A stretch of DNA of 64,000 nt from Raillietiella orientalis (lineage: Eukaryota). The position numbers were made by a program, and so were the translations under genes. The stretch covers positions 124,001-188,000 of the forward strand of contig JAYWIR010000074.1 of NCBI GenBank assembly GCA_036172245.1. The letters are read 5' to 3'. The notes below the pieces were generated by a model. The model saw only the letters and a program-made list of their open reading frames with translations, searched no databases and was not told the origin of the DNA. Below are positions 10,051 to 43,200 of the stretch, one piece after another. The first letter of the stretch is position 1. Every line of letters starts with the position of its first letter.

Positions 10051-10077
10051 AATAAACGCCCCGGGCGTACCCGGGTG
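10051..10077 (+). terminator. Representative element 3' end: AATAAA plus GC stem-loop, no poly(A); 13 instances in the window
   Basis: Also at 22, 1489, 14233, 23140, 35461, 40371, 51133, 56761, 62378 (+) and 14611-14635, 25273-25306, 40952-40977 (-); function inferred. Confidence 0.7.
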
Positions 10078-10096
10078 ATAACGCCGAATCCCTTGG

Positions 10097-10113
10097 CGAG
10101 TGGACGTGTTTTT
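10097..10113 (+). promoter_or_regulatory. Conserved 5'-terminal motif containing (G/A)GACGTGT, candidate internal promoter element
   Basis: At the 5' tip of A (10097, 17516), B (11808; variant at 5231 minus), E (37378 minus) and C (23907; 63777 minus), while the rest of the UTRs diverge; absent from D. Confidence 0.5.
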
Positions 10114-11799
10114 CCTTCGCTCCCGAGTAAGTCGACAGGAAGCGGTTTTGTCTTGAATTGTTTGGTGTGGAACATCGTTGGTGTCCGATGGCAGCGATGC
10201 CTGAGGAGACCACGATGGAGGTAGGTGTGGGGGAGGCTTGCCCACCCCCACAGCCTACAGAATCAAGGGCGTCCGCCCCGGAATCGCCCTCGCCGCTCAA
10301 GGCGAGGAGCTGGTGCGCCATGGTGGCCGCGCCGAGCGTGGAAACCATGGCCGAGATGGCGGCCTACCGGGCAGCTGGGTACAAGCCCAGCTTGGTGTAC
10401 CAGGTAGGCCCTTTATTTGATGGAAAAACGGCACGCGCGTTTACGAAAGCGCTGCAAAACGCCTGAGTAAGAGAAAAAGATCTTGACGGTTTGTCCGTTC
10501 TCAGCGGAGGTCAGCGAGTCGAGGTGGTGTGCAAGGAGATCACCTTGGCTCAGACTCTGATCACCAGCCTGCTGAACGTCGACGACCGCAACATCCTGCC
10601 GGTGACGATGGACCGCTCCGTGGTGGTCCATCTCACTGGAATAACGAGCCGTATGAGTCGCTCTGCGGCAGCACAAGAACTACAGAAGTTCGGCGAGGTG
10701 CACGCGGTGTGGCCTAAGCCAACAATCTTTGAAGGCTTCAATAGCCATTTCGGAGGCCACGCTGCAGCGCGGTTAACCGTGAGTAAGGACTGTGGGCTTC
10801 CCCACAAGCTGGAGGTCGCTCTAGAGAGCGTGGACCTCTGGAACGTGGAAAAGCCCCGGTATTGCGGCTACTGCGATACCGTAGGACACCGCGAAAAAGG
10901 CCCCCACAGGTGAGTTGGACCTAAGGGCCGTAAGTGCATCCTCCTTCTCGAAGGCAAGGCTCAGGAAGTCGGGACCAAATTCTCAGAAACCCAGGAGGCG
11001 CCTCCCCTCCACCAGCAAGGTAAAGAGACACGAAGTTAGCGGTAGCGCGAGAATCCCGGAGGGGGACCTCCCACGCTCGGAATCCGTCGAGACGGCCACA
11101 CCCATGGAGGAGTGTGAGCAGGAAGGCGATGTCCTCCCTGGAGTCCCCGAGCCTGAAAAGCCCGCCCCCATGGAGAAGGGCCAACAGGTATGCGCGACCC
11201 TACCTGAGGGTGACCCGCTCGACGCGCCGTTACCCATGGAGGAGGGGGACCAGGTGCACGCAGCGCCTGACCCTCCTCCTCCACCTAGCGTCCCGCCCCA
11301 ACAGGTGGCGGACGCCGCATCCATATCTTCCCAGGAATAACACCTGGACTCGCCAGTCGCCGTCGGATTCCCGCCGCCTGTTGGAACGTCAACGGGCTGC
11401 GCGACGACGGTAACAGGCGAGATACGGCCGACACCCTGCGTGAGCTCGACCTGGCCCTGCTGCAGGAGATCCACGTGATCACAGCGGCAGACGCCCAGGA
11501 GATCGGAACGATCGCAGGGGGTCGGTTAAATTGACGTTGCGGCCTCCGCAACACCTGCGGGGTCGCGTTCTTCGTGAAGCCGGCCATGCACGCTGCCGTG
11601 AAGGGCGTGCGCTTCGATGACGACGGTCGGGTCGGTCTGCTGATTCTCAGCTGGTCCGATTCGATCGAATTGATCGACACGAATGTGTACGCCCCCAGCG
11701 GTAAAAAGGGATACAGCGACCGTACCTGGCGGCTGTAATCCCTGAAGCGCGAGTGGCTGGCGGACATGAACGTGCGGAAGGCTCACCTGATAGCGGGAG

Positions 11800-14271
11800 A
11801 TTTCAATCGAGTGCGGACGTGTTTTTCTTCGCTGTCGTCTCCGTGCTTTCATCCGCTTCATCTTGGCGTCGTACATTTTGACGACGAAGTCGACCCAACC
11901 CGAAGCTACTGAAGTTGGAGAAACAGCATAGGGATCTGCAATCGCGGAACCGACGGCCGTCTCCACTTCGTCTTACTCGCCAATAGAGAGGAGTTTTGCT
12001 GACGTTGACGCCACAGAAGCCGAAAAAGGGAAACCAGTCGACGAGTCGGAGTTGCGGGCATACGTAGCCCAAGGCTATAGACCAGCTCTCCGATATCAGG
12101 TGAGTAATCTTCTTTCTGCGCGCGACGGGAATCAGTTCAACGAGGAACTGATCCGTGTTGGCGTGCGGGAGGAGGACCTTCTCGCTATTATGCCCGTAAA
12201 AGACATGGGCTATTTCAAGGAGCGTTGCAAAGACGCTGCACTTGTGGAACGCTTGTTGCGCACCCCGTTGTCGATGCGTGGCCAGAAGGTCTTCCCGGCC
12301 GCCATGGAGGACTCATTTGTGGTGGAGATTTTCGACATCGAGTAGGAAATCTCGGATATTGATATTCGGAACGCGTTGGCGAAATTCGCCACGGTCCATG
12401 CGCTGTGGAGGGTGCGTAGCAACCTCAAGGACTTCCCGTCCATACAGAGCGGAGTCGCTGGATTCCCGCTTACAATGCCGGACCGCCGTCTGCTGCCCAC
12501 CAAACTACAGGTGAAAGACACGGTCGTTCACCTGTGGTTCGTGGGCAAAGTAAGAACGTGCGAGCAATGCGGGAAGGAGGGGCATTGTTTGGATAAATTC
12601 CCCTTTGGAAAATGCCGTTATTGCAAACTATCCGGGCACTAATTGAAAAATTGCCCGGATCTTTTGCGAAAAAAGGCAGCCGCAAAGCTCTATCTTAAAA
12701 AACAAAGCGCGGATAGATAGAAAAAATCTGCGAAAAACCTGGAGAACCCACGGCAGAAATTTCGAAAAAACGCGAGGCGGAATGTCGCCCCAAAGCAGCA
12801 GGAAACCTCGCTCGCGAAGCCCTGCGCGCCCTTTCTCGCGGCAGGGGAGCCGCAAAAGAAAGGGTGCGGGGAATCCGAGGCAATGGTAAGTCCCCCTAGG
12901 CGCAATAGCTGTCCTTCCCAAGCACGCCTGGCTCTTTCGGAGTTCGAGCAACCTGGCGGGGACGTCAATGGACAGCGGCGGTAAGGACACTTCCAGTACC
13001 GTCAGATCCATTCCTTCACCTCCTGAAGTGGCTGAGAAGCCCAAATCGGTTAGGAAGTGTTGTGCCGTGTCGACTTCTAAAGTCGGCAAAAAAAAATCTG
13101 CGTCGCGATCCAACACCGCGAAAGCAGAGAGAAATCTCACACTGTCGCAGTCGGAGAGCAAGCTCTTGACTGGCGCGGATGCCATGCCTACGAAGGGATA
13201 AAAGCCCTTCCGAAGGCAGCGTCCATGACGAGCGTGTCGGAGGCATCGAAACTACTCCCGTTTAAAGACGCGGATGGCTTCAAAGATGGCAATGGAGCTA
13301 AATCTCCTTTTACGGCGCCACGCGAAGTGACGAACCGCAATGAAGTAAAGAAAACTTCAGCAAAGGTCCCTCGTGCAACTGCGCGTGAGCACGCTGAAAA
13401 CGCGCGCGCCGGGAAAGCAGCCGTCACCGAAAGCGATGCTCTGGATATGGAAAAAGACAACAGGACAGTTCGCTGCTCCCTCTTGCTTGGAAAGAAGCTG
13501 TGCTGCTTTTCGTTTACTGGGGTTTTCAGTGCAACGAGCGTTGGCATCGTGACTCCGGGGGACTTGCGTATGCGAACTGCGTTGGGTTCGGATCGACGGA
13601 GTGGATTCCGCACCTACTTCTGGACTGCGGTGTCCCACAAGGACTGTGGCGTAGGCTGGCAACAGCACTAATGCATCCCGTGGACGCCGCAAGAGACTTG
13701 CTGCGACGATTCTTCACGCCGAGCGGGCTGTCACTAAGCGCAAGGATTGCAACCATCGGTTGCAAACGCGCGATAGTTTCCGTCGGCCAGGCGTTGGTAA
13801 TCAACGGACAGCACCAAGAGGTAATCAGCAAAGCATCCTTCTACATGGGAGCTTCCGCTAGATGGCCTCATTTGACAGAGGAGACAAAAAGGAATCTCGC
13901 CGCAATACACTGCCGGTTTACACACCCTTAGCAGCGGACAACCCGGTGATCATTGCCCTACCCTCCATAAACAAATTTTGTATTTTCTTTTTACACCTGC
14001 GTCCCCATAGGCTCCGAAGCATTTTAGGTGCTCATCGTTTAAATCCCCGTGAGTACGGAGCCTAACCAAAAACCCGTTAACCTTCCCTCGAGGTTTTGAT
14101 TTTTGTTTGTTTCCCCTCATTCCTCCCACGCTGCGAGCGGTTTGTTTACCAGGCCTGCGTGCCAATAACTTTTCTATGTTCTCTGTCGTTTTGTTGGTTG
14201 AGGACATTGTCTCTGACCAGTTTATTATTATTAATAAACGCCCCGGCGTGACCGGGTGATAAATTTCAATC
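11800..14271. repeat. 9-bp TSD ATTTCAATC (11800-11808 and 14263-14271) flanking B2
   Basis: Exact direct repeat; the same 9-mer in reverse (gattgaaat 5231-5239) borders B1. Confidence 0.9.
11809..14262 (+). mobile_element. Family B copy B2: internally deleted element (decayed ORF1 joined to the extreme C-terminus of ORF2; no EN, no RT)
   Basis: 11809-13470 is colinear with B1 (5230-3575); it then jumps to LLFVYWGFQCN...PHLLLDCG (13500-13931); AATAAA 14233 plus hairpin; perfect TSD. Confidence 0.9.
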
Positions 14272-15994
14272 TCCGTCTGCTAACAGGTGAGCCAGAAACA
14301 CAAGAGAACGCGATGAACGAGTTGTGCGTCGCCATGCGTGCGGGCAACTTGTTCGAGGGTGAGAGGGGAATGGTCCGCAGCAACGACCACGTCTTCCTCG
14401 ACGCTGACCTGTCTTCACGGGTCGGCAAACAAAGGAGGGTTGCGTCGACGTTGTCGGACCATTCCCGGTTGATTTTCAAGATGCGGCTTCGCGACAAGAG
14501 ACCGCCATCCAGGGATTGGCGTCTGGCGAGGGAGTGGACGCGACTCCCTGGTGCGAAGGAACACCTTCGCGAATACCTGAGAGGCGTCACGCTCCGGAAT
14601 CTCCATTGAAACCCGGGTGCGCTGGGACGTTTATTCTCACGAATAAACCCATACAAACAGTGACTGGACCAGTAGTCCAGCCACGCCCTGTAAAGATATA
14701 GTTTGCCTGGCTACCGGTGCGCAGGTCGGAGCGGGCAACCTCGGCATCAGAGGGGAGGGGGAACGAAACAAAAAGAAAACAAAAAATAAACAAAAATCAG
14801 GGAGGGAGCGGGAAGGGATCACAGTCTGCTGGGTGGGTCCGTCATCCTCTTGAAGATGCCGGCAAGCTGTTTCTGCGTGTGTGGTTTCAGATGGGGCCAT
14901 CGATTCGCCACCCTGAGGAAACGGGCGGCATACCCGTTGGCATCCCTGTCGCTGGATCCTTCCGTCGCTTTGCTCCATGCCACGACGATCCCCCGTAGGC
15001 AGCACAGGGCTGCAAGCGAGGCCGCTGGAGGCAGGGCGTCACGGACAAAGAGCGTCTCTGATGTTGCCTCCGGGGATCCCCAGGGCTGCGGCAAAGCGTT
15101 CTCACAAGTGACGGAGGGCAACACAATCCACTAACAGGTGGGGGAGGTATTCACTCTCCCCGCACCTGACACAATTAGGGTTGACACCCCCCCGCGTCCA
15201 GAGGTGTCGGCGGGCGTTACAAGGAAGCCCCCAATAAAACACCAGCAGTGCCGACTGTTGCCACTCCACAATGAGGGTGCGCTAGTCCATGAGCACCGGG
15301 GGCCACTCGAGATGTTCCTCTGGAACATCCAGTTGCTCTCCCCATCGCAACAGTCCATTTGGGGTGGTCCTCGGGGTCGCAGCGTTAGTGAGCTGACCCG
15401 TTTTCCAATCCCCGATTTTCTTTGCCCTGCTGGCGATCTTGACAGTAACCTCCCATTGTGCCGCTACGTCGCTGATCAGATGTTCCCGTAGGGAGAGCAA
15501 TACCGCAGCAAGGGAATGTCTTTGTGCCCACGCTCTCCTTCGGGGATTCTCGATGATTTCTCGGAGCGTGCGGTGGGCATGAGACCCGAACAGAGCTATT
15601 CGCTCGTGTTGCGGGATCTGCTCCTGAATCATCGCTCACGTGCGGACGGTTTCCTGCAACCAGGCAGGACCGTTCACGGTGCGTACGAGGATCCGGTCCG
15701 AGTTGTTCTTCAGGAGCTTGGCCGCCCTCCGAAGTTGAAGTCCGCAGTGGCAGATGGGGATTCGAAGTGCAAAGTAGCACGAGAGTCTCGCATTGCCGGT
15801 GGCCCGCTCGACGAGGAGTCGTCCAGGGAGGCACCAAGGGGTGCACCAATTTTCTGCCATAAAGGCAAAAACTCGGAACTGGAGCTGTAGCTCCAGCCGC
15901 TCCAACGTCAGGAGGCCCAGACCACCATCCCGACGAGGAGCGCACAAGTCCGAAAGACGGACTCGGTGCCTCCCTCTGCCCCAAAGGGCGATCC

Positions 15995-17320
15995 TCAGGA
16001 GGTCCTTCGTCCTCTTCTTTGACTCCGCTGAGGGGTGCAAAAAAAAAGCAAGGGGCGAAGGAGGCGGGCCGCAAACGCGTTCCACGCCGCGGTCCGTTCC
16101 TGCAGGGAGACCCTGCCGTCATGGAACGGGCCGATAGCCGCCTGAGCCTTCCGAAGACAGCCGGACCACGCTTCCGCAGGGGAGTAATCCCCCAACGGCA
16201 CACCAAGGTACTTGAAGTACCTCACCGTGGGGATCCCCAATCGGACCCAGTCCTGCTGCCCTACCCACGCCGCTCCGACTGGCATTACGGACGACTTCGC
16301 CCTGTTCACCGTCAGTCTGGTTCCCCGACTCAGCAGGTCGAAGAACTCCTCGTCCGCCGCAGCCGGTGTGGACATAGGCAGCAGCAGCAGAAGGTCGTCC
16401 GCGTACGCCGAAACCGCAGGCGTACCGGAACAATCGCACGGCAGGTGCGCCAGAGTCTCCCTGTACGCTCTCAGCAACAATTCGAAATAGGCGCTGAAGA
16501 GCAAGGGGCTGAGGCTGTCTCCCTGCCGTATGCCGCGTCGCACCGGTACGCCGTGCTCGGTGGATCTTCTAAAAAAAACATTAATAAGCGCGTCGCGCCA
16601 GCTGGAGCGCAGGTAGACCACCAAAGAGGCCGGGAAGCCCAAGCATTCCAGAAGAACCAAAAGGAGATTCTGGTCGACGCAATCGAATGCTTTATGCAAA
16701 TCGACTGCGACCGCGAGGTCTCCTCTCCCCTTTCGACCATCCCGTCCCCCACCGACGGCCGCACCGGAATTCCGGTTGCTTATTATGCTCCTTCCTTGTT
16801 GGAGCTCTAACCATGTGGAAGCGTAAAACAGGTTCGCCTCCATACTTCGCCCGGGAACAGCATATGTCTGTTCCGAGCTGATGAAGATGTTGGCGACCCG
16901 TCCCAAACGCTCTGCCCACAGCTTGGCTAGCAACTTGGCGTCCGCATTCACTATTGTGATGGGACGCCAGTTTTTCATGCTCCTAAGGTCTCCTCCCTTA
17001 GGGAGGAGCCGCACCTTTGCTGAACGAAACGAGGTGGGAACGTCACCTGTTCCGCGGATCGGCAAGGTGAGCTGATGTACCAGGAGAGTGAGCTCTGCCG
17101 CTAAAGTTTGATAAAATTCCGCAGGCAGGCCGTCCTCCCCTGGAGCCTTTCGCCTTTTGAGCTCTCCGATGGCCGAGATGATCTCGCCCATCGTGAAAGG
17201 CTCGTCGAGGTTCCTTTTCTCCTCCTCCCCGATTGCTTGAGCACCTTCCGGAAGCAGGAGTCGTGAGACAGCCTGCTCCGGAGGCGCCCTGGCGTACAGG
17301 GAGGAGTAAAATTTACTCAC
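15995..17320 (-). pseudogene. Element E reverse transcriptase core (frameshifted at both ends)
   Basis: KAPGEDG, WRPITIVN, VDLHKAFD, GIRQGDSLSP, YADD, KYLG. Confidence 0.88.
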
Positions 17321-17498
17321 TATCCAGGTTTCTCAGTGGGAACTGAGTGCTCCCGGCCCTTGTTGTCCAGCAAGCTGGCCGACCCGGATTGCCAGGCTTG
17401 CCTCTCGGCTCCCGCTCGATACTCTGCTATCCTGCGCATGTCGGGGGTTCTCGCGTAACGTCGGGCCTGAAGATAGCGCCTTTCGTTACGCGGCCCCT

Positions 17499-20400
17499 CC
17501 CCAAATCCCTCTCCTCGAGAGCGGACGTGTTTTTCCGACGCTCCGCGAACGAGCAGAGGAAAGCGGTTTTTGTTTGGTTCAGTGTGAGGTTTATCACATC
17601 GTTGGTGTTCGATGGCATCGCTGCCAGAGGACAAAACGATGGAGGTAGGCGTGAGGGAGGCTAGCCCCCTCCACGACCTACAGAATCAGGGGCATCCGTC
17701 CCGGAATCGCCCTCGTCGCCCAAGACGAGGAGCTGGAGCGCCATGGTCGCCGCGCCGAGCGCGGAAACCTTGGCTGAGCAAACGGCCTACAGGGCCTCCG
17801 GATATAAACCATCCCTGGTTTATAAGGTAGGAAACCTGTTCGACGGTCGCACCGCGCGTGCCTTCAGCAAGGCACTACAGGAATTCCCCGTGTGTGAGGA
17901 GGATTTTGACGGCCTCGACGTACTCAGCGGGGGGCAACGCGTGGAGGTCTTCTGCAAAGACGTAGCCCTAGCGCAGCGCCTCATCAACACCCCGCTGAAT
18001 GTGGCTGGCCGAAAGATCCTACCCGTTAGCATGGACCGCTCCGTAGTGATCCATCTCACGGAGATCACGAACCGCATGACGCGCTCTGCGGTGAACGCGG
18101 AGTTGAAAAAATACGGAGATGTGCACGCGCTGTGGCGAAAGCCAACCATTTTTGACGGCTATAACAGCCTCTTTGGTGGCCAGGCAACAGCGCGTGTCAC
18201 TGTGAACGAGGGTGCTGAATTACCCCACAAACTGGAGGTCGGGTAGGAGCCCGTCGACCTCTGGTACGTAAGGAAACCCCGCTATTGTGGCTACTGCGAT
18301 GCAGTAGGGCATGTGCGCAGGCGGTGCCCGAATATCGAGTGCCACTTGTGCGGGGAAAAGGGACACGTCCGTCGTGTGTGCCCTAAACGCCCCATTCCGG
18401 TGCCACCTGCTGCCAAAAAGGCACAGGTGAAAACGATGAATAAGGTCGAAAGACCTCATCGCGCGAATATCCGGCCCCAGAAGCCTTCCCCTCCTCCATC
18501 AACCCAGGCGGCAGCGGAAAAAACCGCGAAACACGCGGGCGAGGAAGAAGGATGGACGCTGGTAAAGGCCAGAAAAGAACCCAAAAAGGGTTCACAAGAG
18601 AAGGCGGAGAAAAAGTCGGTCGCGAAGGCGAAAAAACCTGGTCCGCGATCTAAAACTCTCCGCGAGTGCTCGGTAGCACTGGAGCGCATCAACGTTCCCG
18701 AGGCTGCCACCCGGGGCGACGAGCCTCCCCTCGTCGTTTCCGCCGCGCCCGAGGTTCGCGACGGCGAACCCTCTGTTTGCACAGAGGGTGAGACGCGCGA
18801 CGCGCTCGCCGCCGGCGAGGACGCCGCCTTCGCGAAGGCGGCGGAGGAGCTCGCGGCCACGCAGGCTGAGCGTGAGAACCCCTCGCGCAAGGCCGTGCGA
18901 AGGCCGGCTCCGCCGAAGCAGGCCCCCGCAGGTGATTGCGATCTGGGGGCCGGAAGTGCATCCTCCTCCTCGGAGGCATCCCCCCGGAAGACGGGACGCA
19001 AGTCCCAAAAGCCGAGGAAGCGCCTCCCCTCCACGAGCGAGGAGGAGAAGCTGGAAGTCGCCGGCAGCGTGGGAATCCCGGAGGGGGAGCTCCCACGCGC
19101 GGAAGCCGTCGAGCAGGACACCCCCATGGAGGAGGGTGAGCAGGGGGGCGAAATCCCCCCTGCCGTCGCGGACCCTGAGGAGCCCACTTCTATGGAGGAG
19201 GGCCAGAAGGTAGGCGCGACCCCACCTGAGGGTGAACCGCCCGACGCGCCGTCACCGATGGAAAAGGGTGGCCAGGTGATAGAGTAACCTGTCCCTCCTC
19301 CTTCACCTAGCGTCCCGCCCCAACAGTTGGCGGACGCCGCACAACCGATTTCCAGGAATAACACCTGGGCTCGCCTGTCGCCGTCGAATCCGCGTGGCCA
19401 GTTGGAACGTCAACGGGCTGCGCGACGACGGCCACAGACGAGATACGGCCGACACCCTGCGTGACTTTCACCTGGCCCTGCTGCAGGAGATGCACGTGAT
19501 CACCTCGACAGACGTCCAGGAGATCGGAGCGATCGCGGGGGGTCGACTGTATTGGCGATGCGGCGCCCGCAACACCTGCGGGGTCGCGTTCTTCGTCAAG
19601 CCGGCCATCGACGCTGCCGTGAAGGGCGTACGCTTTGATAACGACGGTCGGGTCGGTCAGCTGATTCTCAGCTGGTCCGACTCGATCGAATTGATCGTCA
19701 CGAACGTGTACGCCCCGAGCGGAAAAGGGGGATACAGCGACCGTACCAGGCTACTGGAAACCCTGAAGCGCGATTGGCTGGCCGACACGAATGTGCGGAA
19801 GGCACAAGTGATAGCTGGAGACTTCAATCTCCGTCTGCTATCAGGTGAGCACGAAGCACAAGAACGCACGGCCAACGAGTTGTGCGCTGCCATGCGCACG
19901 CGCAACTTGTTGGCAGACGCGGAGGGAATGGACCGCAGCATCGACCACTTCTTCGTGGATGTCGACCTGTGCTCACGGGTCGGCAAACGGGGAAAAGTTG
20001 CGTCGACGCTGTCGGACCATTCCAGGATCATCGCCGAGGTTTGCCCGCGCGACAAAGGACCCCCGTCCAGGGCGCGGCGGCTGCCTGGGGACTGGACGCT
20101 GCTCTCAAGGTGCGAAAGAACACCTTCGCGAATTCCTGAGAGGCGTCACCCTCCGCAGTCTCCAAGACTAGTACCTCTTCAAGGCCACGGTCCGCGAGTT
20201 CTGGGAGGAGTTTCCCCTGCACCGCCTGCCCCCCGGATTCGGGGAGGGAGCTCGGAACCATCGGGCTTATCTACAGGCCCGCCGGTGCGAGAGGACCCCG
20301 AATGTCCGTCGCCTAGCGGAATATCGAGCCGGGGCCGAACGCCAAGCCTGGCAATCCGGGTCGGCCAGCTTGCTGGACGACCAGGGCCGGGAGCGATCCG

Positions 20401-28922: not shown

Positions 28923-28935
28923 AAAAGGGGAAGAC

Positions 28936-31562: not shown

Positions 31563-34500
31563 ATGAGGGCAATCGCGTCTTCTCGTCGTGTTGCCGTAAC
31601 GTCTTGGAACGTCAACGGGCTCCAACACGAGAAGAAGAGGCAACTAGTGGCTCACGCTCTGCGCGCCTGCGACTTGACGCTCCTGCAGGAGATTCACAGC
31701 ATCTCCGGAGAGCAGGCTGCCGAAATCGAACGGCGCGCGGGCGGAACGCTACTTTATAGGTGCGGCGTTGCACGTACGTGTGGTGTCGCTTTCCTCGTAC
31801 GAGGAACTTTGGCGGGAGCGGTGCGCAGCGTTCGTTTCGACACGGAAGGCCGAGTGGGACAGCTTGTACTCAAGTGGTCCGTCTCGCTCGTCCTTGTCGT
31901 AACAAACGTGTACGCGCCGAGCGGTGCTGGACGATGGGCCGAAAGGATTGAGTTCTTCGGTACCCTTCAAGGCCAGTGGCTCACTCGATCTCACCCTACT
32001 GTGGCCCATGTCATTGCGGGGGACTTTAACGTCCACCTGCTTTCCGAGAATAGATCCCACAAAAGGGAAAAGTTGCTAGCGGAAGAGATGTGCGCGTCCG
32101 TGCACGCGTGCAGCTTGTTCGCTAGCGACCCTGTTATGGCAGCAACGCCGGATTACGTATACATTGATGAACACTTGCTCTGTGGAGTGGGTAGGAGAGG
32201 TCCCGTGCCGTCCGTGCTTTCAGACCACAACAGGCTCGAGTTCGAGTTGCTCCTGCCAGGCAAGGGGCCTCCAAACTGTTTTTGGAGGATGCCGGCAGAC
32301 TGGCTAAGCCAACCGGAGGCGGCTAAGCATCTTCGCCAGTACCTCCTCGATTTTGCCATAAGTGAGCTCGAGTACTGGGACGATCTGAGAAGATCGGTCC
32401 GCAAGTTCTGCTGCCGGTTTCCCTTGCAACAGCTTCCGTGCGGCTACGGAGAGGGCGTAGCCACCAGCAGAGATTTTCTGCAGGCCCGCTCCTTTTCCAG
32501 GCGCGCGGACGTTGGTCGATTATCCGAGTACAAGGCCAAGGCCGAGCGCCAGGTCTGGCAGTCAGGGGCGACAGTTCTGCTCGACGACCAGGACCGGGAA
32601 TGCTCGGCTCCAGCCGGCGTGCGACGGAGAGTCAGGCGCTATTACTCTTCTCTGTATGCAGAGGCACCGACGGAACGCAGCCTGTCCCGGCTGCTTCTGC
32701 CGATTGATGCACTTGTTGTAGACGAGGATGAACGCGCGCGTCTTGATGAGCCATTCACGGCAGAGGAAATTTCCTCGGCCATCTCGGGGCTCAAGAGACG
32801 AAAAGCGCCAAGCGAAGATGGGCTCCACGCGGAATTCTTTCAGTGTTTTGCGGCGGAGCTCATCCCTCTGGTGCTCCAGCTCTCGTCGCTGATGCGAGAC
32901 TTGCGCGATGTCCCCGCATCGTTTCGCTCAGCGAAGGAGCGTCTACTGCCGAAAGGCGGAGATTTGCGCCAACTGAACAACTGGCGTCCGATCACATTAG
33001 TGAATTCGAACGTCAAGTTGTTCTCGAAACTTTGGGTGGCGCGGATGGGTAGGATCGCGGAATCCTTGGTAAGTCCGGAGCAGACGTACGCTGTTCCTGG
33101 GCGGTCCATAGACGCGAATCTCTTGTTCATCCGCACATGGCTGCAATTGCAGCATCGTGTGGCGGTGGGTCGTCGTGCGGAAGCTACGCCTTCGATCTCT
33201 CACCGACGGAGGCGCGGGACGCAAAGGGAGACACCGGGAGCCTTGGCGGTTGCAGTCGATCTGCACAAAGCTTTCGATTGCGTGAACCAAAAGCTTCTTC
33301 TTGAGCTTTTGGAACATCTGGGTCTTCCGGCATCCCTGTTGGCGTACTTGCGCTCCTGCTGGCGCCACGCGATTACATCCATTGTTTTCAGTGGCTGTCG
33401 CGTGTACGGCGTGCCGGTACGACGAGGAATTAGGCAGGGTGACAGCATAAGCCCGCTGCTCTTCAGCATCTATTTTGAATTGGTGCTGGAGGCTTACAGG
33501 CTGACGCTAGCCAACCTGCCGAGCTCCTGTCCAGGTACGCCGGCCGTTGCAGCCTATGCCGACGACCTGCTTCTCCTGTTGCCCATGTCCATTCCGACAG
33601 CGTCGCTTGAAGATTTCTTTGAGTTGATCCGTCGCGGTGCGGGCGTGAGCGTTAACAGGAGTAAGTGTATGGTTGTTCCGGTGGGTGCGACGTGGGAGGG
33701 GCAGTCCGACTGGATCGATCTGGGGATCCCCACGGGCAGGTACCTCAGGTACCTTGGCGTGCCGTTCGGCGACTTCTGCATCTCAGAAGCGTGGTCGGAC
33801 TGCCTTCGGAAGGCAGAGCGTGCACTTAGCCCGTTTTCAGGAGGCGAGTTCGTCTTGCCGGAACGGGCCTGCATCTGGAACACCTTCGTTGCCCCCCTCC
33901 TCCGCCCCCTGTTTTTTGTTTGTCTAACCCTCCAGGAAGTCAAAGTCTTGGCGCAGCGCCTTCTACGCAAAGCGTTGTGGGGCGCTGCAAGATCCCGTGT
34001 TAGACTTAAAGACTTGGTGGCGCCGCGTCAGGATGCAGGCTTGGGCATCCTCGACTTAAACAGCATCGAACTGCAGGTGCAGTTTCGCATGCTGCGGCTC
34101 TGTGCCAAGCTGTGGTGTACGCCGTGGTGCTTACCCGCACGCCTTATACTGAGGCGCTGCACGGGAAACGAGGGACTGCTTTCGTTGCTACCCCACTTTC
34201 GGCACACCAGAATAGGGTTTGGCTTCCCGCTGAGGCAGCTGTCCTCACTGCTGGAAGCCCAAAGCTGGATCTCCTGCCGCCCTATGAACATTAATGCATG
34301 GCGGCAGGAATCTTTTTCATCGTGGGCAGCTTCCGAAGAAACGCGCCCGGAAGATCTTCGACGCCTGCGACTTCTCCTCAGTCATCAAATGGACGAAGTC
34401 ATGCAGGACAAGAAGTTGTCGTATCGTCTGGCCGCCACACCACTCGCCGCAGCGCTGTCTGGCCTGAGGGCAAGCAACGACGGTTGCCTACCGGCGAAAT

Positions 34501-35135
34501 GGGAATTCTCCTGCAAAATAGCGGGAGTCAGTAAGCTCCTCGGCAGCTGGACGACAAAGGAGCTGGTGCAAGCCGCCACACCTCGGAATCGGGCGAAGGG
34601 ACTGCTTCGGTGGAGCGAACATTTAAGTGTGCCCCCCGGAGAGATAGTGGTTCCCCCCGTTTGTTTGGACAGCTCCGTGTTTCCCCTTAAGTGGAAGCAA
34701 GATGTGCTGCTCTTTTTACATTGTGCATTTCACTGTAATAAGCAGCGAAGCATCGTTTCCGGGGGAGCTGCTTTGCCAAACTGTTTAAGGTGCGGAGAGA
34801 TCGAGTCTTTTCCGCACCTTTTGTTGGACTGCGGTGACCTCCGGGAACTGTGGCGAAGGCTCACTTCGGCCATCATGCCACAAGGAGGCACTGCCATTGA
34901 TGTGCTGCGGCGCTTCTTCAGCAGAAATGGACTTTCGGTTGGCGCGATTGTCGCAACCATGTGTTGCGTTCGCGCCATCGTGAGGGCCCGCTACGCCCTG
35001 GAGTTGTCGTCGCAGCGAAGGGAGGCTCACCTGCTTGCAGCTCAATCCATGGAGAAGGCTTCAAGGTGGTTTCATCTTCGTGACAAGGTGAATGAGGACA
35101 TCACCTGCATACATCGCCGGTTTACACATCTTTGA
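31563..35135 (+). CDS. Intact ORF2 of C1: APE endonuclease, reverse transcriptase and C-terminal CCHC (1190 aa from ATG)
   Basis: WNVNG, LQEIH, NVYAP, GDFN, SDH; WRPITL, VDLHKAFD, GIRQGDSISP, YADD, RYLG; CLRCGEIESFPHLLLDC; ATG overlaps the ORF1 stop (TGATG). Confidence 0.93.
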   Translation: MRAIASSRRVAVTSWNVNGLQHEKKRQLVAHALRACDLTLLQEIHSISGEQAAEIERRAGGTLLYRCGVARTCGVAFLVRGTLAGAVRSVRFDTEGRVGQLVLKWSVSLVLVVTNVYAPSGAGRWAERIEFFGTLQGQWLTRSHPTVAHVIAGDFNVHLLSENRSHKREKLLAEEMCASVHACSLFASDPVMAATPDYVYIDEHLLCGVGRRGPVPSVLSDHNRLEFELLLPGKGPPNCFWRMPADWLSQPEAAKHLRQYLLDFAISELEYWDDLRRSVRKFCCRFPLQQLPCGYGEGVATSRDFLQARSFSRRADVGRLSEYKAKAERQVWQSGATVLLDDQDRECSAPAGVRRRVRRYYSSLYAEAPTERSLSRLLLPIDALVVDEDERARLDEPFTAEEISSAISGLKRRKAPSEDGLHAEFFQCFAAELIPLVLQLSSLMRDLRDVPASFRSAKERLLPKGGDLRQLNNWRPITLVNSNVKLFSKLWVARMGRIAESLVSPEQTYAVPGRSIDANLLFIRTWLQLQHRVAVGRRAEATPSISHRRRRGTQRETPGALAVAVDLHKAFDCVNQKLLLELLEHLGLPASLLAYLRSCWRHAITSIVFSGCRVYGVPVRRGIRQGDSISPLLFSIYFELVLEAYRLTLANLPSSCPGTPAVAAYADDLLLLLPMSIPTASLEDFFELIRRGAGVSVNRSKCMVVPVGATWEGQSDWIDLGIPTGRYLRYLGVPFGDFCISEAWSDCLRKAERALSPFSGGEFVLPERACIWNTFVAPLLRPLFFVCLTLQEVKVLAQRLLRKALWGAARSRVRLKDLVAPRQDAGLGILDLNSIELQVQFRMLRLCAKLWCTPWCLPARLILRRCTGNEGLLSLLPHFRHTRIGFGFPLRQLSSLLEAQSWISCRPMNINAWRQESFSSWAASEETRPEDLRRLRLLLSHQMDEVMQDKKLSYRLAATPLAAALSGLRASNDGCLPAKWEFSCKIAGVSKLLGSWTTKELVQAATPRNRAKGLLRWSEHLSVPPGEIVVPPVCLDSSVFPLKWKQDVLLFLHCAFHCNKQRSIVSGGAALPNCLRCGEIESFPHLLLDCGDLRELWRRLTSAIMPQGGTAIDVLRRFFSRNGLSVGAIVATMCCVRAIVRARYALELSSQRREAHLLAAQSMEKASRWFHLRDKVNEDITCIHRRFTHL

Positions 35136-37456
35136 TAACGGCGTAATCCGGTGACCCCTGCGACCTCTCGCCCACGCATACCCCGTCCCCGTTCGCTCGG
35201 TAAAATTTCCGGTGCCCATGCATTTATCCCCGTGTCTTCCAGAGCGATCCCAAAGACCGTTATCCCGTCCTCCTTATTCATTGTTTTTATTTTATTTTGG
35301 TTTCTTTGTGTTTCCCGCCCCCCCACACCGTTCACAAAACTGTTACTCTGGCCTGCGTGCCAGCAATATTCTCTTCATTCTTGTTTAGTCGTCGGTTGGG
35401 AGTTTGGTTCCCAACTGGTTTATTTTGTATAATTGCTTTTTTTTTGGTTATGTTATATGGAATAAACGCTTCGGCGTCACCGGGTGAGAAATCTCCCGGG
35501 CTTGATCTGCGGAGATCACGTGGATCTCCTGCAGCAGCATTAGGTCGAAGGATGCCAGGGAATCGGCCACGTCACGCCTCTTGCCGTCGTCGCTTAGCCC
35601 GTTCACGTTCCAACAGGCGATCAGAAGACGACAGCGATAGGCGATTCCCGGCATAATGGCTGGTAAAGTGGCGTCGCGGCACCTGCCGCGGGGCAAATGT
35701 AGGAAAGGTCCATCGGTACGAGGACGGAGGCCTCTTCAGGCGCCTGGGGTACCTGTTCGGCCTCCATCCTCACCATCCCCTCCGTGTCCGCGCGTGGGAG
35801 TCTCTCGGGCGACGGGTCCCGAGAGTTTCCCACGCTCATGGCACCCTCGCTACCGGAAGCCATCTCTTCCCCTTCGTCAGGGGAGACGATCTTCCAAGGC
35901 ATTGTGGACTTTCGTACAGCCTTTTTGCGGGTTGCGCTGGAGATGGAAGCTGTGCTTCCGGCCTCCACCTCAAGGACGGAAGTGGAGAATTCCTGAGGGG
36001 AGGCCGGACGCCTCACGGCCTTCTTGCCAGCCTTGGGGGCGACCGGCTGCAACGAGGCAGCCAGCTCCTCCGCGGGGCGCTTGAAAGCGACGTCATCGAG
36101 CGTGGGCTCGATGACGGACGCCGCCGCCTCGCTCCCCTCCTTGTTGACTTTGTCAAGGGAGGGTTGAGCAGGGGCAGCAGCGAGTTCTTTAGCGCCGCAT
36201 CCGTCAATGACGGGAATCCGCTCTACAACGACGCAGCAGCTTTTAATTTTTTCGCGGCGCAGAGCGGTCTCGCTTTGTTTCGCCACGTTCTTTCTCTTCC
36301 TATGGGAGTTTTTCTTGGGTTCGACCTTCTGCCATCTTGGCTCTTGACCCTCGCCCTCGACCTTTTCGGAGTTTTTCGCCGAAGTCTCGGGATTGCCTTC
36401 GCCTTGGTGGCGGAAGTGACCTCCTTAGCAGCAGCACGAGCTGCCAGCTTCTTTCTCTTTTTTGCCGCGCGCTTTCTCGCGTTTTTCGAGGACACGACGC
36501 GGACTGTGTTTTGGGGGCACACCAGACGGGTGTGCCCCGCTTGTATGCATTGCAAGCACTGCACGCTCGGACACCTCATTTTAAGGTGACCAAAGCTGCT
36601 GCAGCAGCCGCAAAACTTGGGTTTCCCCACGTACCACACGTCAACGGATTCACCGTTGACGGTGAGTTTGTGGGGAAACTCACATCCCTCGCGAACGGTC
36701 ACTCGCGCTGCACTCAGGCCGCCAAGCACCCCGTCGTAATCGACAAAAGGAGTAGGCTTTCCCCACAGCGCGTGGACAGTTGCAAATTTTTCTAATTCGT
36801 TTCGGACGGCCTCCTCCGTCATCCGGAACGTGATACCGGTCAGGTTAATAATCACCGACCGGTCTTCAGTAATGGGGAGAAGCCTCCGGCTGCCCATAAT
36901 TACGGGGGTTCGCAGAAGTCTCTGCGCAAGAGTTTCCTCCTTGCAGGTAACTTCCACAAATTGACCCCCGCTTCTGACAGACATAGCCAGAAGCTCCTCT
37001 TTTTGTACACCGAGAACGCGCATCGCCTACGAAAAGGCGCGCGCGTTCTCGGGAGAATATAAACCGTCTACCTTATATAGAAGGGGTGGGTCATACCCCT
37101 CCTTCAGGTGAGAGCGCATTTCCGCCATAGCCGCTGGCGTAGGTGCCGCAGCCACGGCGTTCCAAGCCCTGGGTAGTGCCATGGGCGCAACCGTGCTGGC
37201 GGGAGCCTCCACCGATGCGGGAGACCCCACCTCCATCTCCTCCGGGTGCAATGAGGTCATCGCTCCCGGAACCTCACCGGTAGGGGTATCAGGCATTGCT
37301 GCCTAATCCTCCACCCACACCACGCAAAAGCACCAACGGAAATGAAACTCATGAGCAACGAAAAGACACGTCCACTCGACGCTCCGGAATCTCCAGGACT
37401 CCGACCTTTTTAAGGAATCGGTCCGGGAGTTCTGCGAGCAGTTCCCCCTGGACCGC

Positions 37457-40200
37457 TTGCATTCCGGATTCAACGAAGGTCCTCGCAATCATCGGGCGTA
37501 TTTTCAGGCCCGTAGGTACGAGCGAACCTCTAATGTCCGTCGCATGGCCGAGTACCGCGCCGGGGCCGAACGCCAAGCCTGGCAATTCGGGTCGGCCAGC
37601 TTGCTGGACGACCAGGGCCGGGAATGTTCCTCCCCGGCGTCGGTACAACATCTCGTGCGGAGTTATTATTCCTCCCTTTACGCCGGGGCGCCCTTGGATC
37701 AAGATGCCTCTCGGCTCTTGCTTCCGGATGGTGCCGCGGCAATAGGGGAGGAGGAGTCGTTGAGCTTCGATGAGCCTTTTACCACCGGGGAAATTCTCAC
37801 CGGTATCAAAAGGCTTAAGAACCGGAAAGCTCCAGGGGAAGACGGCTTGTCCGCGAAGTTCTATCAGAGATCCGCGGAAGAGCTAGCACCCCTGCTGCTT
37901 CAGCTTACAAGGCTTATCCGAGACGAAGGCAATGTTCCCGCCTCGTTTGATTCAGCCAGAGTGAGGCTCCTTCCGAAAGGGGGAGACCTTAGGAATTTGA
38001 ACAACTGGCGTCCGATCACGATTGTGAATACGGACGCCAAGTTGGTTGCCGGGCTATGGGCTTTGCGTCTGGGGCAGGTGGCAGAAGCCATAATTAGCCC
38101 GGAGCAGACAGATGCTGTTCTCGGGCGAAGTAGGGATGCCAACCTCTTCTTCGCGAGCACATGGATGCAGGCGCAGAGGTGTCAAAAGAAAGGGAAAGGA
38201 AAAAACGGCAACCTCACTTAGGGGCCGTCAGCAGGGCAGGGAATGGATTCTTGGGCGGATAAAGGGGCCTTAGAGCTCGCAGTCGATCTATATAAGGCGT
38301 TCGACTGTGTTGACCAGGGGCTTTTCTTAGAGCTCCTGGGTCGCATGGGCTTCCCACCCTCCTTGATTACCTACCTGCGCTCTTGCTGGATATATGCGAT
38401 AATTTCCGCCTCTTTCAGCAGTCAGAAGGTGCTTGGCGTGCCGGTGCGGCGGGGCATCAGGCAGGGAGATAGCCTCAGTCCCCTGCTCTTCAGCACCTAC
38501 TTTGAGTTGGTGCTGAGAGCGTACAGGGTGACTTTGGCCCCATTGCCGAGCTCGTGCCCCGGCACGCCCGCCGTTGCAGCGTACGCCGACGATCTTCTGT
38601 TCTTGTTGCCAATGTCCACCCCGGCAAAGGCGGTCGGAGACTTCTTCGATCTGCTCAGCCGCGGGACCGGACTGCAGATCAACAGGGCGAAGTCGTCGGT
38701 GGTGGCAGTAGGTGCGGCGTGGGCAGGGCAGCAGGACTGGGTCCGTCTGGGGATCCGCACGGCGAGGTGCCTCAAGTGCCCTGGTGTGCCGTTGGGTGAC
38801 TACTCCCCTGCGTAAACGTGGTACAGCTGTCTTCAAAAAGTTGAGACGGCGATCGGCCCGTTCCTGGAAGGCAAGTTTCACTTGCCGGAACGGGCCGCGG
38901 TTTGGAACGCTTTTGCGGCCTCCATCCTCCGCTTCTTGCTTTTTGTTTGCCTTGCCCCCAGAGAATGCAAAAAGAGGACAAAGGATCTCCTCCGCATAGC
39001 TCTTTGGGGCAAGGGGATGCCCCGCGTCCCTCTGAAGGACTGTTGCGCGCCGCGTCGGGACGGCAGCCTTGGCCTCCTGACGCTGAAGCGCGTGGAAATC
39101 CAGCTGCGGTGACGAACCCTCACCATCGCAACGAAGATGTGGAGCACCCCTTGGTGCGTTCCGGCCCGCCTTCTCGCCAGGCGTGTGTCTCGATGCGAAG
39201 GACTCGCGTCGTTTCTTCTGTGCCCTGGCCGGAAGATCCGAAGATGCGGTCTTATGCTCCGACGCATAGCATCCCTGGCGAAGACGAACGGTTAAACGGT
39301 TTGTGGCCCCGCCAACTCCTCCGCCTAATTGGAGGAGTCTGCTGGCACATAAGCTAAGCAGAACCGGAGGAGCGAAAACAATATGAACTGCCTGCCAATC
39401 GGCCCATACGCCAACCGCACCCTGTGGGAAATACTGGAATTTCCCTGGAGTCGCAGGTGGGCGCTGACGACCTTCCTTGCTACGGCGTTGTCCTACCTCC
39501 TGAGGGCGCTTCAGGATCGCCAGAAACCCAAATGGCAAGTTACCTGCCAGATCGTAGGCAGAAAGAAGATATTAAGCGGCTGGACCACTGGAGAACTCGC
39601 GGACGCCACGACCCCGCGCTTTCAGCCGCGTGGATTGCTGAGATGGGGTGAGCTGCTCGCCATCCCTACGGATGTGCTCAAGTGGCCCCCGGTAATGAAG
39701 GAATCAAGCAATCCTGCCCCTTAAGTGGCAAGAGTGGGCGTTGCTACTGCTGCACTGGGGATTACCCTGCAACGCACGCCGCTTCCGCTGGACAAGGGGA
39801 GCCGTAGATCCTGAGTGTCTCAGGTGCGGGGAGCGCCAATCGCTCTCCCACCTTATTGTGGAATGTGCTGCCATCCGACTCCTCTGGGAACGGTTCGGGG
39901 CGAGCCTCAGGCTCCCTACGGGCAGCACCCCCAGAGACGTTCTTCAGCCCCTCTTCGTGAAGGACGCACTGCAGCCAGCCGCAGCCATCGCAGCCTTGTG
40001 CTGTGTCCGTGGCATTGTGGCGGCATGGAGCGACGCCCATAAGGAAGGAGTGGGTCCACACGTGAGAGATGTCATCCCATACGCCCAACGCTTCATGCGG
40101 AAGAGCTGTCGGATGGCCCCAACTGGGGAATATACGGACGGACCTCGAGGGATTTTTTCAACGGATGGGCCCTCCTCAAAGCGTTCAGCAATCCCTTCCC
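37457..40200 (+). pseudogene. Degraded RT and C-terminus of the outer A copy
   Basis: Fragments 37457-38221, 38243-38815 (YADD), 38882-39112, 39383-39724 and 39741 onward are colinear with 7289-9877. Confidence 0.88.
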
Positions 40201-43200
40201 TGCCCAGCAACTTCTTTTTGTTTGTTCATTTTTTATTTTTCTTTTTGTTTTATTCCCATTTCCCTTCGCTGCTGAGGAACGCTACGCTGGGCTGCGTCCC
40301 GGCGTCCCGGCCGGTCCAGTGCATATGGCTGTGAGCGGGGCCTTGTACCGCGGATGTAGAGTTTTTTAAAAATAAACGCCCCGGGCGTACCCGAGTGTAA
40401 ACCTCCAAGGCTGGCAAGAAGGCCGTCAGGCGTCCGGCCTCCCCTCAGGAGTCCCCCACTTCCGACCCCGAGGTGGAGGCCGGAAGCGCAGCCTCCGTTT
40501 CTACGGCACCGCGCAAGAAGGCTGGACGTAAGTCCAAAAAGCCAAGGAAGCTCGTCTCCCCCGTCGAAGGGGAAGAGATGGCTTCCGCAAGCGAGGGTGC
40601 CATGAGCGTGGGAAACTCTCGGGACCCGTCCCCCGAGAGACTCCCACGCACGGACACGGAGGGGATGGAGGGGGTGGAGGCCGAACAGGTGCTTCAGGTG
40701 CCTGAGAAGGCCTCAACCTACATGGACATCCCGCTCGCCTCGCAAGAGGCGGGCTCCCCCACACCTTAATTCTGCCAGCAGTAATGCCGGGAATCTCCTC
40801 CCGCCGTCGTCTGCGCATCGCCGTTTGGAACGTGAACGGCATGACAGACGCCGGCAGGAGACCAAACATGGCCGCCCTTCTGGAGTCCTACGACCTTGCG
40901 CCGCTGCAGGAGATCCACGTGATCTCTGCAGAACAAGCGCAAGAGATTTCTCACCCGGTCACGCCGGGGCGTTTTTTCCATATAACATAACCAAAAAAAG
41001 CAATTATACAAAATAAACCAGTTAAGAACCAAACTCCCAACCGACGACTGAACAAGAATAAAAAGAATATTGCTGGCACGCAGGCCAGAGTAACAGTTTC
41101 GTGAACGGTGTGGAGGGGCGGGAAACACAAAGAAACCAAAATAAAATAAACACAATGAATAAGGAGGACGGGATAACGGTCTTTGGGATCGCTCTGGAAG
41201 AAACGGGGATAAAAGCATGGGCACCGGAAATTTTACCGAGCAAACAAGGACGGGGTATGGGTGGGCGAGAGGTCGCAGGGGCCACCGGATTACGCCGTTC
41301 TCAAGGGTGTGCAAACCGGCGATGTATGCCGGTGATGTCCTCATTCACCTTGTCACGAAGATGAGACCACCTTGAAGCCTTCTCCATGAATTGAGCTGCA
41401 AACAGGTGAGCCTCCCTTCGCTGCGATGACAACTCCAGGGCGTAGCGGGCCTTCACGATGGCGCGAACGCAACACATGGTTGCGACAATCGCGCCAACCG
41501 AAAGTCCATTTCTGCTGAACAAGAGCCGCTGCACATCAATGGCAGTGCCTCCTTGTGGCATGATGGCCGAAGGGAGCCTTCGCCACAGTTCCCGGAGGTC
41601 ACCGCAGTCCAGCAAAAGGTGCGCAAAAGACTCGATCTCTCCGCACCTTAAACAGTTTGGCAAAGGAGCTCCCCCGGAAACGATGCCTCGCTGCCTATTA
41701 CAGTGAAATACACAATGTGAAAAGAGCAGTACACCTTGATTCCACTGTAAAGGGAACACGGAGCTGTCCAAAAAAACGGGGGGAACCACTATTCCTCCGG
41801 GGGGCACACTCAAATGTTCGATCCAACGAAGCAGTCCCTTCGCCCGATTCCGAGGTGTGGCGGCTTGCACCAGCTCCTTTGTCGTCCAACTGCCGAGGAG
41901 CTTACTGACTCCTGCTATTTTGCAGGAGAATTCCCATTTCGCCGGTAGTCAACCGTCGTTGCTTGCCCTCAGGCCAGACAGCGCTGCGGCGAGTGGTGTG
42001 GCGGCCAGACGATACGACAACTTCTTGTCCTATATGACTTCGTCCATTTGATGACTGAGAAGAAGACGCAGGCGTCGAAGATCTTCCGGGCGCGTTCCTT
42101 CGAAAGCTGCTCACGATGAAAAAGATTCCTGCCGCCATGCATTCGTGTTCATGGGGCGGCAGGAGATCCAGCTTTCGGCTTCCAACAGTGATGACAGCTG
42201 CCTCAGCGGGAAGCCAAGCCCTATTCTGGTGTGCCGAAAGTGGGGTAGCAACGAAAGCAGTCTTTCGCTTCTCGTGCAGCGCCTCAGTATAAGGCATGCG
42301 AGTGAGCAGCACGGCGTACACCACAGCTTGGCACAGAGCCGCAGCATGCGAAACAGCACCTGCAGTTCGATGCTGTTTAAGTCGAGGATGCCCAAGCCTG
42401 CATCCTAACGCGGCGCCACCAAGTCTTTAAGTCTATCACGGGATCTTGCAGCGCTTTACAACGATTTGCGTAGAAAGCACTGCGCCCAGACTTTGACTTC
42501 CTGGGGGGGTGGACAAACGAAAAACCGGGGGCGGAGGAGAGGGGCAACGAAGGTGTTCCAGATGCAGGCCCGTTCCGGCAAGACGAACTCGCCTCCTGAA
42601 AACGGGCTAAGTGCACGCTCTGCCTTCCGAAGGCAGTCCGACCACGCTTCTGAGATGCAGAAGTCGCCCAACGGCACGCCAAGGTACCTGAGGTACCTGC
42701 CCGTAAGGATCCTCGGATCGATCCAGTCGGACTGCCCCTCCCACGTCGCACCCACCGGAACAACCATACACTTACTCCTGTTAACGCTCACGCCCGCACC
42801 GCGACGAATCAACTCAAAGAAGACTTCAAGCGATGTCGCCGGGGTGGACATGGGCAACAGGAGAAGTAGGTCGTCGGCATAGGCTGCCAAGGCCGGCGTA
42901 CCTGGACAGGAGCTCGGCAGGTTGGCTAGCGTCAGCCTGTAAGCCTCCAGCACCAATTCAAAATAGATGTTGAAGAGCAGCGGGCTTAAGCTATCACCCT
43001 GCCTAATTCCTCGTCTTACCGGCACGCCCTACACGCGACAGCCACTGAAAACAATGGATGTAATCCCGTGGCGCCAGCAGGAGCTCAAGCACGCCAACAG
43101 GGATTCCGGAAGACCCAGACGTTCCATAAGCTCAAGAAGAAGCTTTTGGTTCACGCAATCGAAAGCTTTGTGCAATTGGACTGCAACCGCCAAGGCTCCC

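Follow-up and report, generated by a model that had tools for sequence, protein, structure and literature searches.

Known safe havens for target-specific long interspersed nuclear elements (LINEs) include multicopy genes of the host, microsatellites, DNA transposons and long terminal repeat (LTR) elements. R1, R2 and the SART/TRAS elements insert with nucleotide precision, produce a fixed target-site duplication (TSD) or deletion, form head-to-tail arrays, and carry target flank in their template RNA. Within the Tx1 clade, the available text of one report places Tx1 of Xenopus in the piggyBac-type Tx1D, Tx1-Mar in Mariner-N4_AMi, and Tx1-8_Crp and Tx1-4_AMi in LTR retrotransposons; it also discusses co-transcription with the target and pairing of template flanks as aids to precise integration, and it classifies a LINE as target-specific by a 20% rule on genomic copies flanked by the target (PMC4494074). 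Here we describe a 64,000-nucleotide (nt) stretch of Raillietiella orientalis DNA (contig JAYWIR010000074.1, positions 124,001 to 188,000; hereafter the window) in which LINEs lie inside the coding regions of other LINEs. At window positions 10098–40401 there is a LINE of a lineage that we call A, which has 5,051 nt of its own sequence, spans 30,304 nt, and has been opened by younger relatives. We consider it likely that this is a genuine nest produced by successive target-primed reverse transcription, with the endonuclease of each lineage nicking a short coding site in its siblings.

The nest at 10098–40401

Five elements are stacked within A: X, E, A2, C1 and D0. Their own lengths are 2,455 nt (X), 5,506 nt (E), 5,651 nt (A2), 5,947 nt (C1) and 5,619 nt (D0); together with A, these lengths plus 75 nt of duplicated target and filler account for the entire span. 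The pieces are listed below in their order along the window (ORF, open reading frame; RT, reverse transcriptase; aa, amino acids).

10098–11808, plus strand: A piece 1, opening with a complete 5′ terminus (GAGTGGACGTGTTTTTCC) and continuing through the ORF1 region and endonuclease to the GDFN codons
11809–14263, plus strand: X, an internally deleted C-like element in which the 5′ region runs directly into the final ~150 codons and 3′ end
14264–14605, plus strand: A piece 2, spanning the GDFN codons through TLRNL and closing with a 17-mer (left copy)
14606–17509, minus strand: E 3′ piece, with the RT, C-terminal region and 3′ end, and the left copy of an 11-mer (17499–17509) at its end
17519–23169, plus strand: A2, a full-length A-group element, antisense in the LPAGFGEG codons of E
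23170–23906, minus strand: E middle piece, endonuclease from aa ~62 to the GFG codons, running from the right copy of the 11-mer to a 12-nt copy at 23895–23906
23909–25269, plus strand: C1 piece 1, with the 5′ end and an ORF1 with two CCHC knuckles, ending in a 16-mer at 25254–25269
25270–30888, minus strand: D0, a full-length element of the D lineage, antisense in the tail of C1 ORF1
30889–35490, plus strand: C1 piece 2, with a 16-mer copy (30889–30904), the remaining ORF1 tail, an open ORF2 and the 3′ end
35491–37378, minus strand: E 5′ piece, with a 12-nt copy (35491–35502), endonuclease aa 1–66, the ORF1 region and a complete 5′ end
37379–40401, plus strand: A piece 3, with the right copy of the 17-mer, the linker, RT, C-terminal region and 3′ end, interrupted by 6 stops and a frameshift

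E lies in A between perfect copies of the 17-mer ACGCTCCGGAATCTCCA (17/17; 14589–14605 and 37379–37395), which encodes TLRNL; the chance of such a match at two given junctions is ~6e-11. A2 lies in E between perfect copies of the 11-mer CCCCAAATCCC (11/11; 17499–17509 and 23170–23180), the reverse complement of the GFG codons in LPAGFGEG, and 9 nt of filler (17510–17518) are present at its 5′ junction. X is in the sense orientation in the GDFN codons of A, flanked by the TSD (A)TTTCAATC at 11801–11808 and 14264–14271 (8/8). C1 is antisense in the endonuclease codons (Q)A(R/Q)EI of E; its 12-nt duplication is imperfect (9/12; 23895–23906 and 35491–35502), and 2 nt of filler (CG, 23907–23908) follow the E middle piece. 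D0 is bounded in C1 by two copies of the 16-mer that agree at 15 of 16 positions.

For a host-frame test, each insert was excised in silico together with one copy of its TSD, and the host was read across the resulting junction. The frame closed at all five junctions, giving GDFN/LRLL for X, TLRNL/QDSDLFKE for E, LPAGFG/EGPRNERR for A2, QAREI/ERISGG for C1 and APSPTRQ/ERSDLP for D0. An earlier note on this DNA had proposed four-level nesting (A>E>C>D) within one A of about 30 kb, with E set off by a 17-bp TSD and a second A-subfamily copy in the same E by an 11-bp TSD, and had suggested that removal of the inserts should leave contiguous host ORFs. The junctions, TSDs and frames bear out this arrangement, including C1 in E and D0 in C1, where the junctions can be read and the frames close with imperfect TSDs. 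The inventory in that note was correct for E, A2, C1 and D0 but omitted the sixth element, X. It had also placed the TLRNL and GFG positions near each other in the linker between the endonuclease and RT, and in A2 the GFG site and the TLRNL nick are indeed separated by only 70 nt.

Two of the elements have lost internal sequence. A has a 596-nt deletion at 10888/10889 relative to A2 (18311–18914) and to A3 (6140–6735), a copy at the left edge of the window; X has lost ~3.2 kb of ORF2 (13463–13468), part of which is kept by its relative X′. The tblastn match in A piece 1 covers aa 8–167 and includes 2 stops.

The A, X, E and C lineages have a common 5′ terminus, GAGTG(C)GGACGTGTTTTTC, and at the 3′ terminus all have AATAAACG, then a short hairpin and GGGTGA.AA; poly(A) is absent. 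Because these termini are common to all nine A-, X-, E- or C-type ends (9/9), the junctions were easy to read. Tails of the AATAAACG type, with the small hairpin and GGGTGA.AA, occur at 10081, 14263, 14606, 23169, 35490, 40401, 1519, 51 and 40949, in A, X, E and C elements and in two left-edge elements, E2 and Y; the tail of D differs. In the 3′ hairpin, which is kept across the ends, a compensatory change was found in none of the five pairs (0/5). Tails held in common would allow the proteins of one lineage to mobilize the RNA of another.

Same-site recurrence and alternative explanations

A second nest of the same kind follows the first:

40402–64000, plus strand: another E>C>D nest, inverted relative to the first
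40402–40948 and 63776 onward, plus strand: E′, 5′-truncated
40949–45547 and 62415–63775, minus strand: C′, within E′
Within C′, plus strand: D1 (45548–51169), D2 and D3, head to tail, with one 16-mer between each pair

C′ and C1 are located at the identical nucleotide of E′ and E. The 12-mer flanking C′, AGCGCAAGAGAT, is perfect (12/12; 40936–40947 and 63778–63789). Chance alone would put two insertions at one nucleotide and on one strand of a 5.5-kb host about once in 11,000. All four D units, in two C copies, are bounded by one 16-mer, with copies at 25254–25269, 30889–30904, 45532–45547, 51170–51185, 56798–56813 and 62415–62430. Thus C and D both show the mark of a target-specific LINE: independent copies that share one nucleotide and one orientation of insertion. 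In addition, A-group 3′ ends are followed twice by a GFG-type 11-mer, CCCCAAATCCC after A2 and CGCCGAATCCC after A0 (an A-lineage copy just upstream of A), and these two flanks are suggestive of same-site recurrence for the A group. The recurrences support insertion at fixed sites rather than at random.

Duplication of existing copies was considered as a source of the second nest and of the D array. The two parts of E and E′ are 83.1% and 77.8% identical (83% for the 5′ piece and 78% for the middle piece), and the parts of C1 and C′ are 94.3–97.3% identical. Because the E parts (78–83%) are less alike than the C parts (94–97%), the inverted arms (23697–36039 and 40402–63987) are not the product of one simple segmental duplication. 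D0 is closest to D2 (97.7% identity), followed by D1 (95.2%) and D3 (89.4%), and with D–D identities ranging from 89.1 to 97.7%, origin of the array from a single local duplication is ruled out.

Several observations weigh against a nest built by successive insertions. No public contig (short Logan contigs over 17450–37449) spans more than one junction. The insertion of E into TLRNL is a single complete event in the window, and the homologous 17-mer of A2, with 3 mismatches, is empty. The 3′ end of A (40401/40402) adjoins the 5′-truncated E′, and no TSD there matches the 5′ flank of A. The remaining points bear on the possibility that ectopic recombination, gene conversion or segmental duplication joined pieces of different A or E copies, in which case the depth of nesting would be overstated. 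The TSD of C1 matches at only 9 of 12 positions, whereas that of C′ in E′ is perfect, and the E 5′ and middle pieces could therefore derive from different E copies. D1 is a mosaic relative to D0 and D2 (~98% over the first ~1.2 kb and over ~3.6–5.2 kb, ~91% between), a sign of recombination, conversion or a switch of template between D copies; exchange does, then, occur here. A with X and A3 with X′ form an inverted pair in which host and insert are equally diverged (85–94% per 200 nt), so that the two GDFN hits may be one event, later duplicated. Both C>D nests carry the same variant pattern in the 16-mer, TCACC at the 5′ side of D and TCGCC at the D 3′ ends, so the C>D composite may have been duplicated in one piece. 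Finally, under site-specific insertion identical TSDs can arise from different host copies, and perfect TSDs therefore no longer prove that two host pieces are one copy.

Even so, we regard such a partly recombinant origin as unlikely. All five host frames close exactly, and the 17-nt and 11-nt TSDs are perfect even though the A2 version of the 17-mer differs at 3 positions. Measured against E′, the E 5′ and middle pieces have diverged to a similar degree (83% and 78% identity), and all three pieces of A are 72–83% identical to A2. At the 5′ side of C1, the 12-mer plus the next 14 nt are identical to E′ (26/26; 23881–23906 versus 63778–63803) in surroundings where E is ~78% identical; simple arithmetic gives an expectation of 0.78^26, or ~0.002. 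The 3′-side copy of the C1 12-mer is diverged from its first base. The 26 identical nt end in register with the E frame, which speaks against a joining of different copies, but a donor flank carried in the RNA explains the identity equally well; the identical stretch fits either a donor flank that traveled with C or a short conversion tract.

An assembly artefact, in which a mis-join among the 94–98% identical C and D copies created the nest or its inverted second copy, is very improbable, although these copies are alike enough to confuse an assembler. The junctions have proper TSDs, the host frames close across them, and the two arms differ by 3–22% and are therefore not a fold-back artefact. 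One public DNA read set contained a share of 0.27 of the words sampled, and none of RNA was listed. The Logan contigs on 17450–37449, from three runs, were short and are summarized as 97–99% identical; they numbered 46 at 99% identity or higher and 58 at 95–99%. A 595-nt public contig with 11 differences crosses the C/D junction at 25253/25254; such a junction thus exists outside this assembly. One contig joint, from 23911 to 35512 (4 letters between, 27 on the shorter side), resembles an E-type copy with an empty C site and is too short to count.

A random pile-up in a gene-free repeat graveyard, without targeting, is very improbable as well. The entire window is LINE-derived, so that LINE-in-LINE insertion is expected even of non-specific elements, and the TLRNL (full event), ILRPLLF and DLHKEFD sites were each seen only once here, but C (2 hosts 78–83% alike), D (4 units, 2 hosts) and the A group (2 GFG-type flanks) each reuse one nucleotide and strand with a constant TSD length, the uniform expectation for just one coincidence is ~1e-4, and each lineage has its own fixed TSD length.

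Lineages, coding capacity and outer flanks

Lineage identities were taken from a 1.2-kb alignment of the RT core of copies within the window. A and A0 are 87% identical, and A2 is 79–80% identical to both; the A-subfamily label previously given to A2 is therefore fair. E is 73% identical to the A group, C1 is 94% identical to C′, C is 63–68% identical to the A group and E, X′ is ~70% identical to C, and D is ~45% identical to all others. The window holds at least five diverged lineages, 45–87% identical in the RT core. E is a distinct sister lineage.

Both open ORF2s (those of C1 and D0) have, by Pfam, an N-terminal Exo_endo_phos domain (expectation values 9e-18 and 2e-11) and after it RVT_1 (1e-34 and 2e-19). 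In a PDB search, the closest solved structure was human LINE-1 ORF2p (1e-38 for C1 and 5e-57 for D0), compared with 2e-12 and 3e-28 for R2. ORF1 of C1, A2 and E each has two CX2CX4HX4C motifs; the Pfam zf-CCHC match was above the cut-off for A2 (1e-4) and below it for C1 (0.03). A CX2CX7-8HX3-4C motif is present close to the ORF2 C-termini, after the RT. A zinc-knuckle ORF1 together with a C-terminal Cys/His motif is typical of the L1/Tx1 group. The elements are two-ORF LINEs with an apurinic/apyrimidinic (AP) endonuclease; by their domains and the structure search they would be of the L1/Tx1 kind. Database proteins included no close or clade-labelled relative (at best 27–30% identity over 30–40% of C1 ORF2), and an Atlas search gave generic endonuclease and RT clusters only.

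Within 10098–40401, open ORF2s are present only in C1 (31530–35135, plus strand, 1,201 codons) and D0 (25404–29048, minus strand, 1,214 codons; its ORF1 is at 29816–30790). These two have no ORF2 defects. The other ORF2s are broken: A by at least 8 stops and a frameshift, E by 3 stops and at least 3 frameshifts, A2 by 4 stops and at least 2 frameshifts, C′ by 8 stops, D1 by 2 stops and a frameshift, D2 by 3 stops, and D3 by 7 stops and a frameshift. The nearest relative in the window is 87% identical for A (RT core), ~80% for E, 94–97% for C and 97.7% for D. These results support the conclusion that the inner elements are younger and less decayed than the outer ones. The earlier note had stated that the intact ORF2s are in the deepest elements; this holds for C1 and D0, but A2, at level 3, is broken, and the ORF1 of C1 is interrupted. 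In the C lineage, ORF1 is one long frame that continues through the D target (codons SPTRQ) to the start of ORF2. In C1 this frame is stopped at 25026 by a TAA (AAA in C′) and is split by D0; C1 therefore cannot be autonomous. E, A2, C1 and D0 through D3 are full length, with complete 5′ ends.

D ORF1 contains tandem repeats at 30446–30631, 45805–45980, 51445–51617 and 57075–57216, with units of 27/48 nt (75 nt in D3), which encode an Ala/Pro-rich repeat. The differences between C1 and C′ and among the D units have transition-to-transversion counts of 167:142, 147:125, 63:66 and 318:275, an unusually low transition bias.

E and the A group are nested reciprocally: E lies in A, and A2 lies in E. 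The same note had described this as reciprocal targeting (A>E>A). Nesting in both directions was confirmed, once each; because each direction is represented by one complete event, the cycle is an observed nesting and not a demonstrated property of two families. We give reciprocal targeting as a family property about an even chance. At the TLRNL site there is one full event, E in A, plus one break at the same bond, the start of A0, a further sign that this bond is cut preferentially. Because TLRNL codons are conserved in neither E nor C, this target is specific to the A lineage. The A group's own GFG sites have C in place of the initial G and are empty.

The elements to the left of A are as follows:

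7083–10097, plus strand: A0, the 3′ part of an A-lineage copy, starting exactly at the TLRNL nick position
5231–7080, minus strand: A3, part of a left-edge nest, containing X′ at its GDFN codons
1520–5230, minus strand: X′, in A3, in which the 3′ end of E2 interrupts the DLHKEFD codons of an RT motif
52–1519, plus strand: E2, whose 3′ end cuts X′ and which is itself cut at its ILRPLLF codons by Y
Ending at 51: Y, the 3′ end of another element, in the ILRPLLF codons of E2

A0 and A are arranged head to tail; A0 is followed by CGCCGAATCCC, a GFG-type 11-mer, and 5 nt, directly before the 5′ end of A. This layout is that of the A2 5′ junction (TSD plus filler), which suggests that A0 and A are in one GFG site. 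A is therefore probably not outermost, and A0 and A would be in the GFG site of a further host, giving five levels. The start of A0, CCA^GGACT, is the E-type first-nick position, and it adjoins the 5′-truncated end of the minus-strand A3. The A3/A0 junction (7078–7085) has 2–3 nt of filler and no TSD, and it could be either an insertion without a TSD or a rearrangement. Twin priming was considered for this head-to-head junction and was not established. On the other side of A, the truncation point of E′ is at the position equivalent to 36039 in the ORF1 of E. Insertion of A into the ORF1 of E′ was likewise not established; the flank, CCTCCAAGG, has only a 6–7-nt core of the GFG nick site.

Two-ORF LINE pieces cover the window from end to end, as seen in a tblastn map and by self-comparison, and the G+C content is 53–63%. 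Searches of the window with Rfam (at the gathering score) and ARAGORN found no Rfam family, no tRNA and no known ribozyme at the 5′ ends of the elements. With all 64 kb consisting of LINE sequence, it is plausible that such an array could expand without hitting host genes, as had been suggested.

Proposed mechanism and comparison with known systems

In the mechanism that we propose, each lineage would have an endonuclease that nicks a single short stretch of its siblings' coding sequence. For E-type elements the nick would fall after ...AATCTCCA, within the A-lineage TLRNL codons, with antisense insertion and a 17-nt stagger. For the A group it would fall at the GFG codons of the linker motif LPxGFGEG (antisense, 11-nt stagger), X and C-like elements would use the GDFN codons (sense, 8–9-nt stagger), C would use the AxEI codons of the E endonuclease (antisense, 12-nt stagger), and D would use the 16-mer in the C ORF1 tail (antisense). 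We infer both that endonuclease specificity is the cause of the fixed sites and the order in which X, E and A2 arrived. A would have inserted beside A0 at the GFG site of a further host, followed by X and E into A, by A2 and C1 into E, and last by D0. Every arrival would add new target sites, and because each TSD re-creates the site, head-to-tail arrays such as D1-D2-D3 and A0-A would result. The template RNAs may also include a stretch of donor flank able to pair with the target, which would leave donor-type target copies next to the 5′ end of C and the 3′ ends of D; recombination, gene conversion or copying of the composite fits those copies as well.

A broader interpretation is that the elements form a closed guild of sibling L1/Tx1-like lineages, that the endonuclease of each has come to recognize its own short coding motif in the others, some pairs reciprocally (E at TLRNL of the A lineage, the A group at GFG of E), and that they live almost entirely inside one another, with donor-flank RNAs seating the cDNA. 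We offer this tentatively, as a proposal that falls a little short of an even chance. Under it, the islands would be self-expanding and gene-free, and a few dozen nt of donor flank would assist in placing the cDNA on the matching target. If the interpretation is true, a set of diverged LINEs landing in one another's conserved coding motifs would represent a different solution to the safe-haven problem: purifying selection on the host element would keep the target constant, every insertion would disable a competitor and supply new targets, and the island would grow without touching host genes. It would provide a testable model for LINE-only islands, whether or not these are heterochromatin, centromere-like regions or small-RNA source loci. 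The elements also offer a natural series of related AP endonucleases with different known targets, useful for learning how such enzymes read DNA. A full-text literature search, with most subscription journals outside its coverage, found no report of cross-targeting among LINEs.

R1, R2 and SART/TRAS resemble the elements in this window in their exact sites and in their arrays at a re-created site. Their targets, however, are host multicopy genes or repeats, whereas the targets here are LINE ORFs, and the best solved relative of these elements is L1 ORF2p rather than R2. Plant LTR retrotransposons, as portrayed in the part of the literature available to us, also have family-specific preferences for nesting in other retrotransposons; there the preference is integrase-based and regional, whereas here it would involve nucleotide-exact endonuclease sites in LINE ORFs (PMC6911290).

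The Zepp and ZeppL elements of green algae, to the extent covered by the accessible portions of two reports, resemble this window in forming GC-rich, LINE-only islands, in nesting into existing copies, and in their tandem arrays (PMC3446292, PMC8226300). Zepp is described there as one family that nests in itself and is represented mostly by 5′-truncated 3′ ends, whereas here there are at least five lineages, mostly full length, and each uses a nucleotide-exact site in an ORF of another lineage. What we found is a LINE-in-LINE island of the Zepp type, and not one family inserted into its own copies with 5′-truncated arrays.

The Tx1 clade, as presented in the excerpted report cited at the outset, is like this nest in consisting of AP-endonuclease LINEs that occupy a defined position and orientation in other transposons, with related families having different targets (PMC4494074). 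The targets given there are DNA transposons, LTR elements, RNA genes and microsatellites; here they are coding motifs of sibling LINEs (TLRNL, GFG, GDFN, AxEI and the ORF1 tail), and, unlike what is described for that clade, the roles of host and guest are exchanged between lineages. The locus combines site specificity of the Tx1 type with nesting of the Zepp type, and adds to them several diverged lineages, each inserted in coding motifs of another and in some cases reciprocally so.

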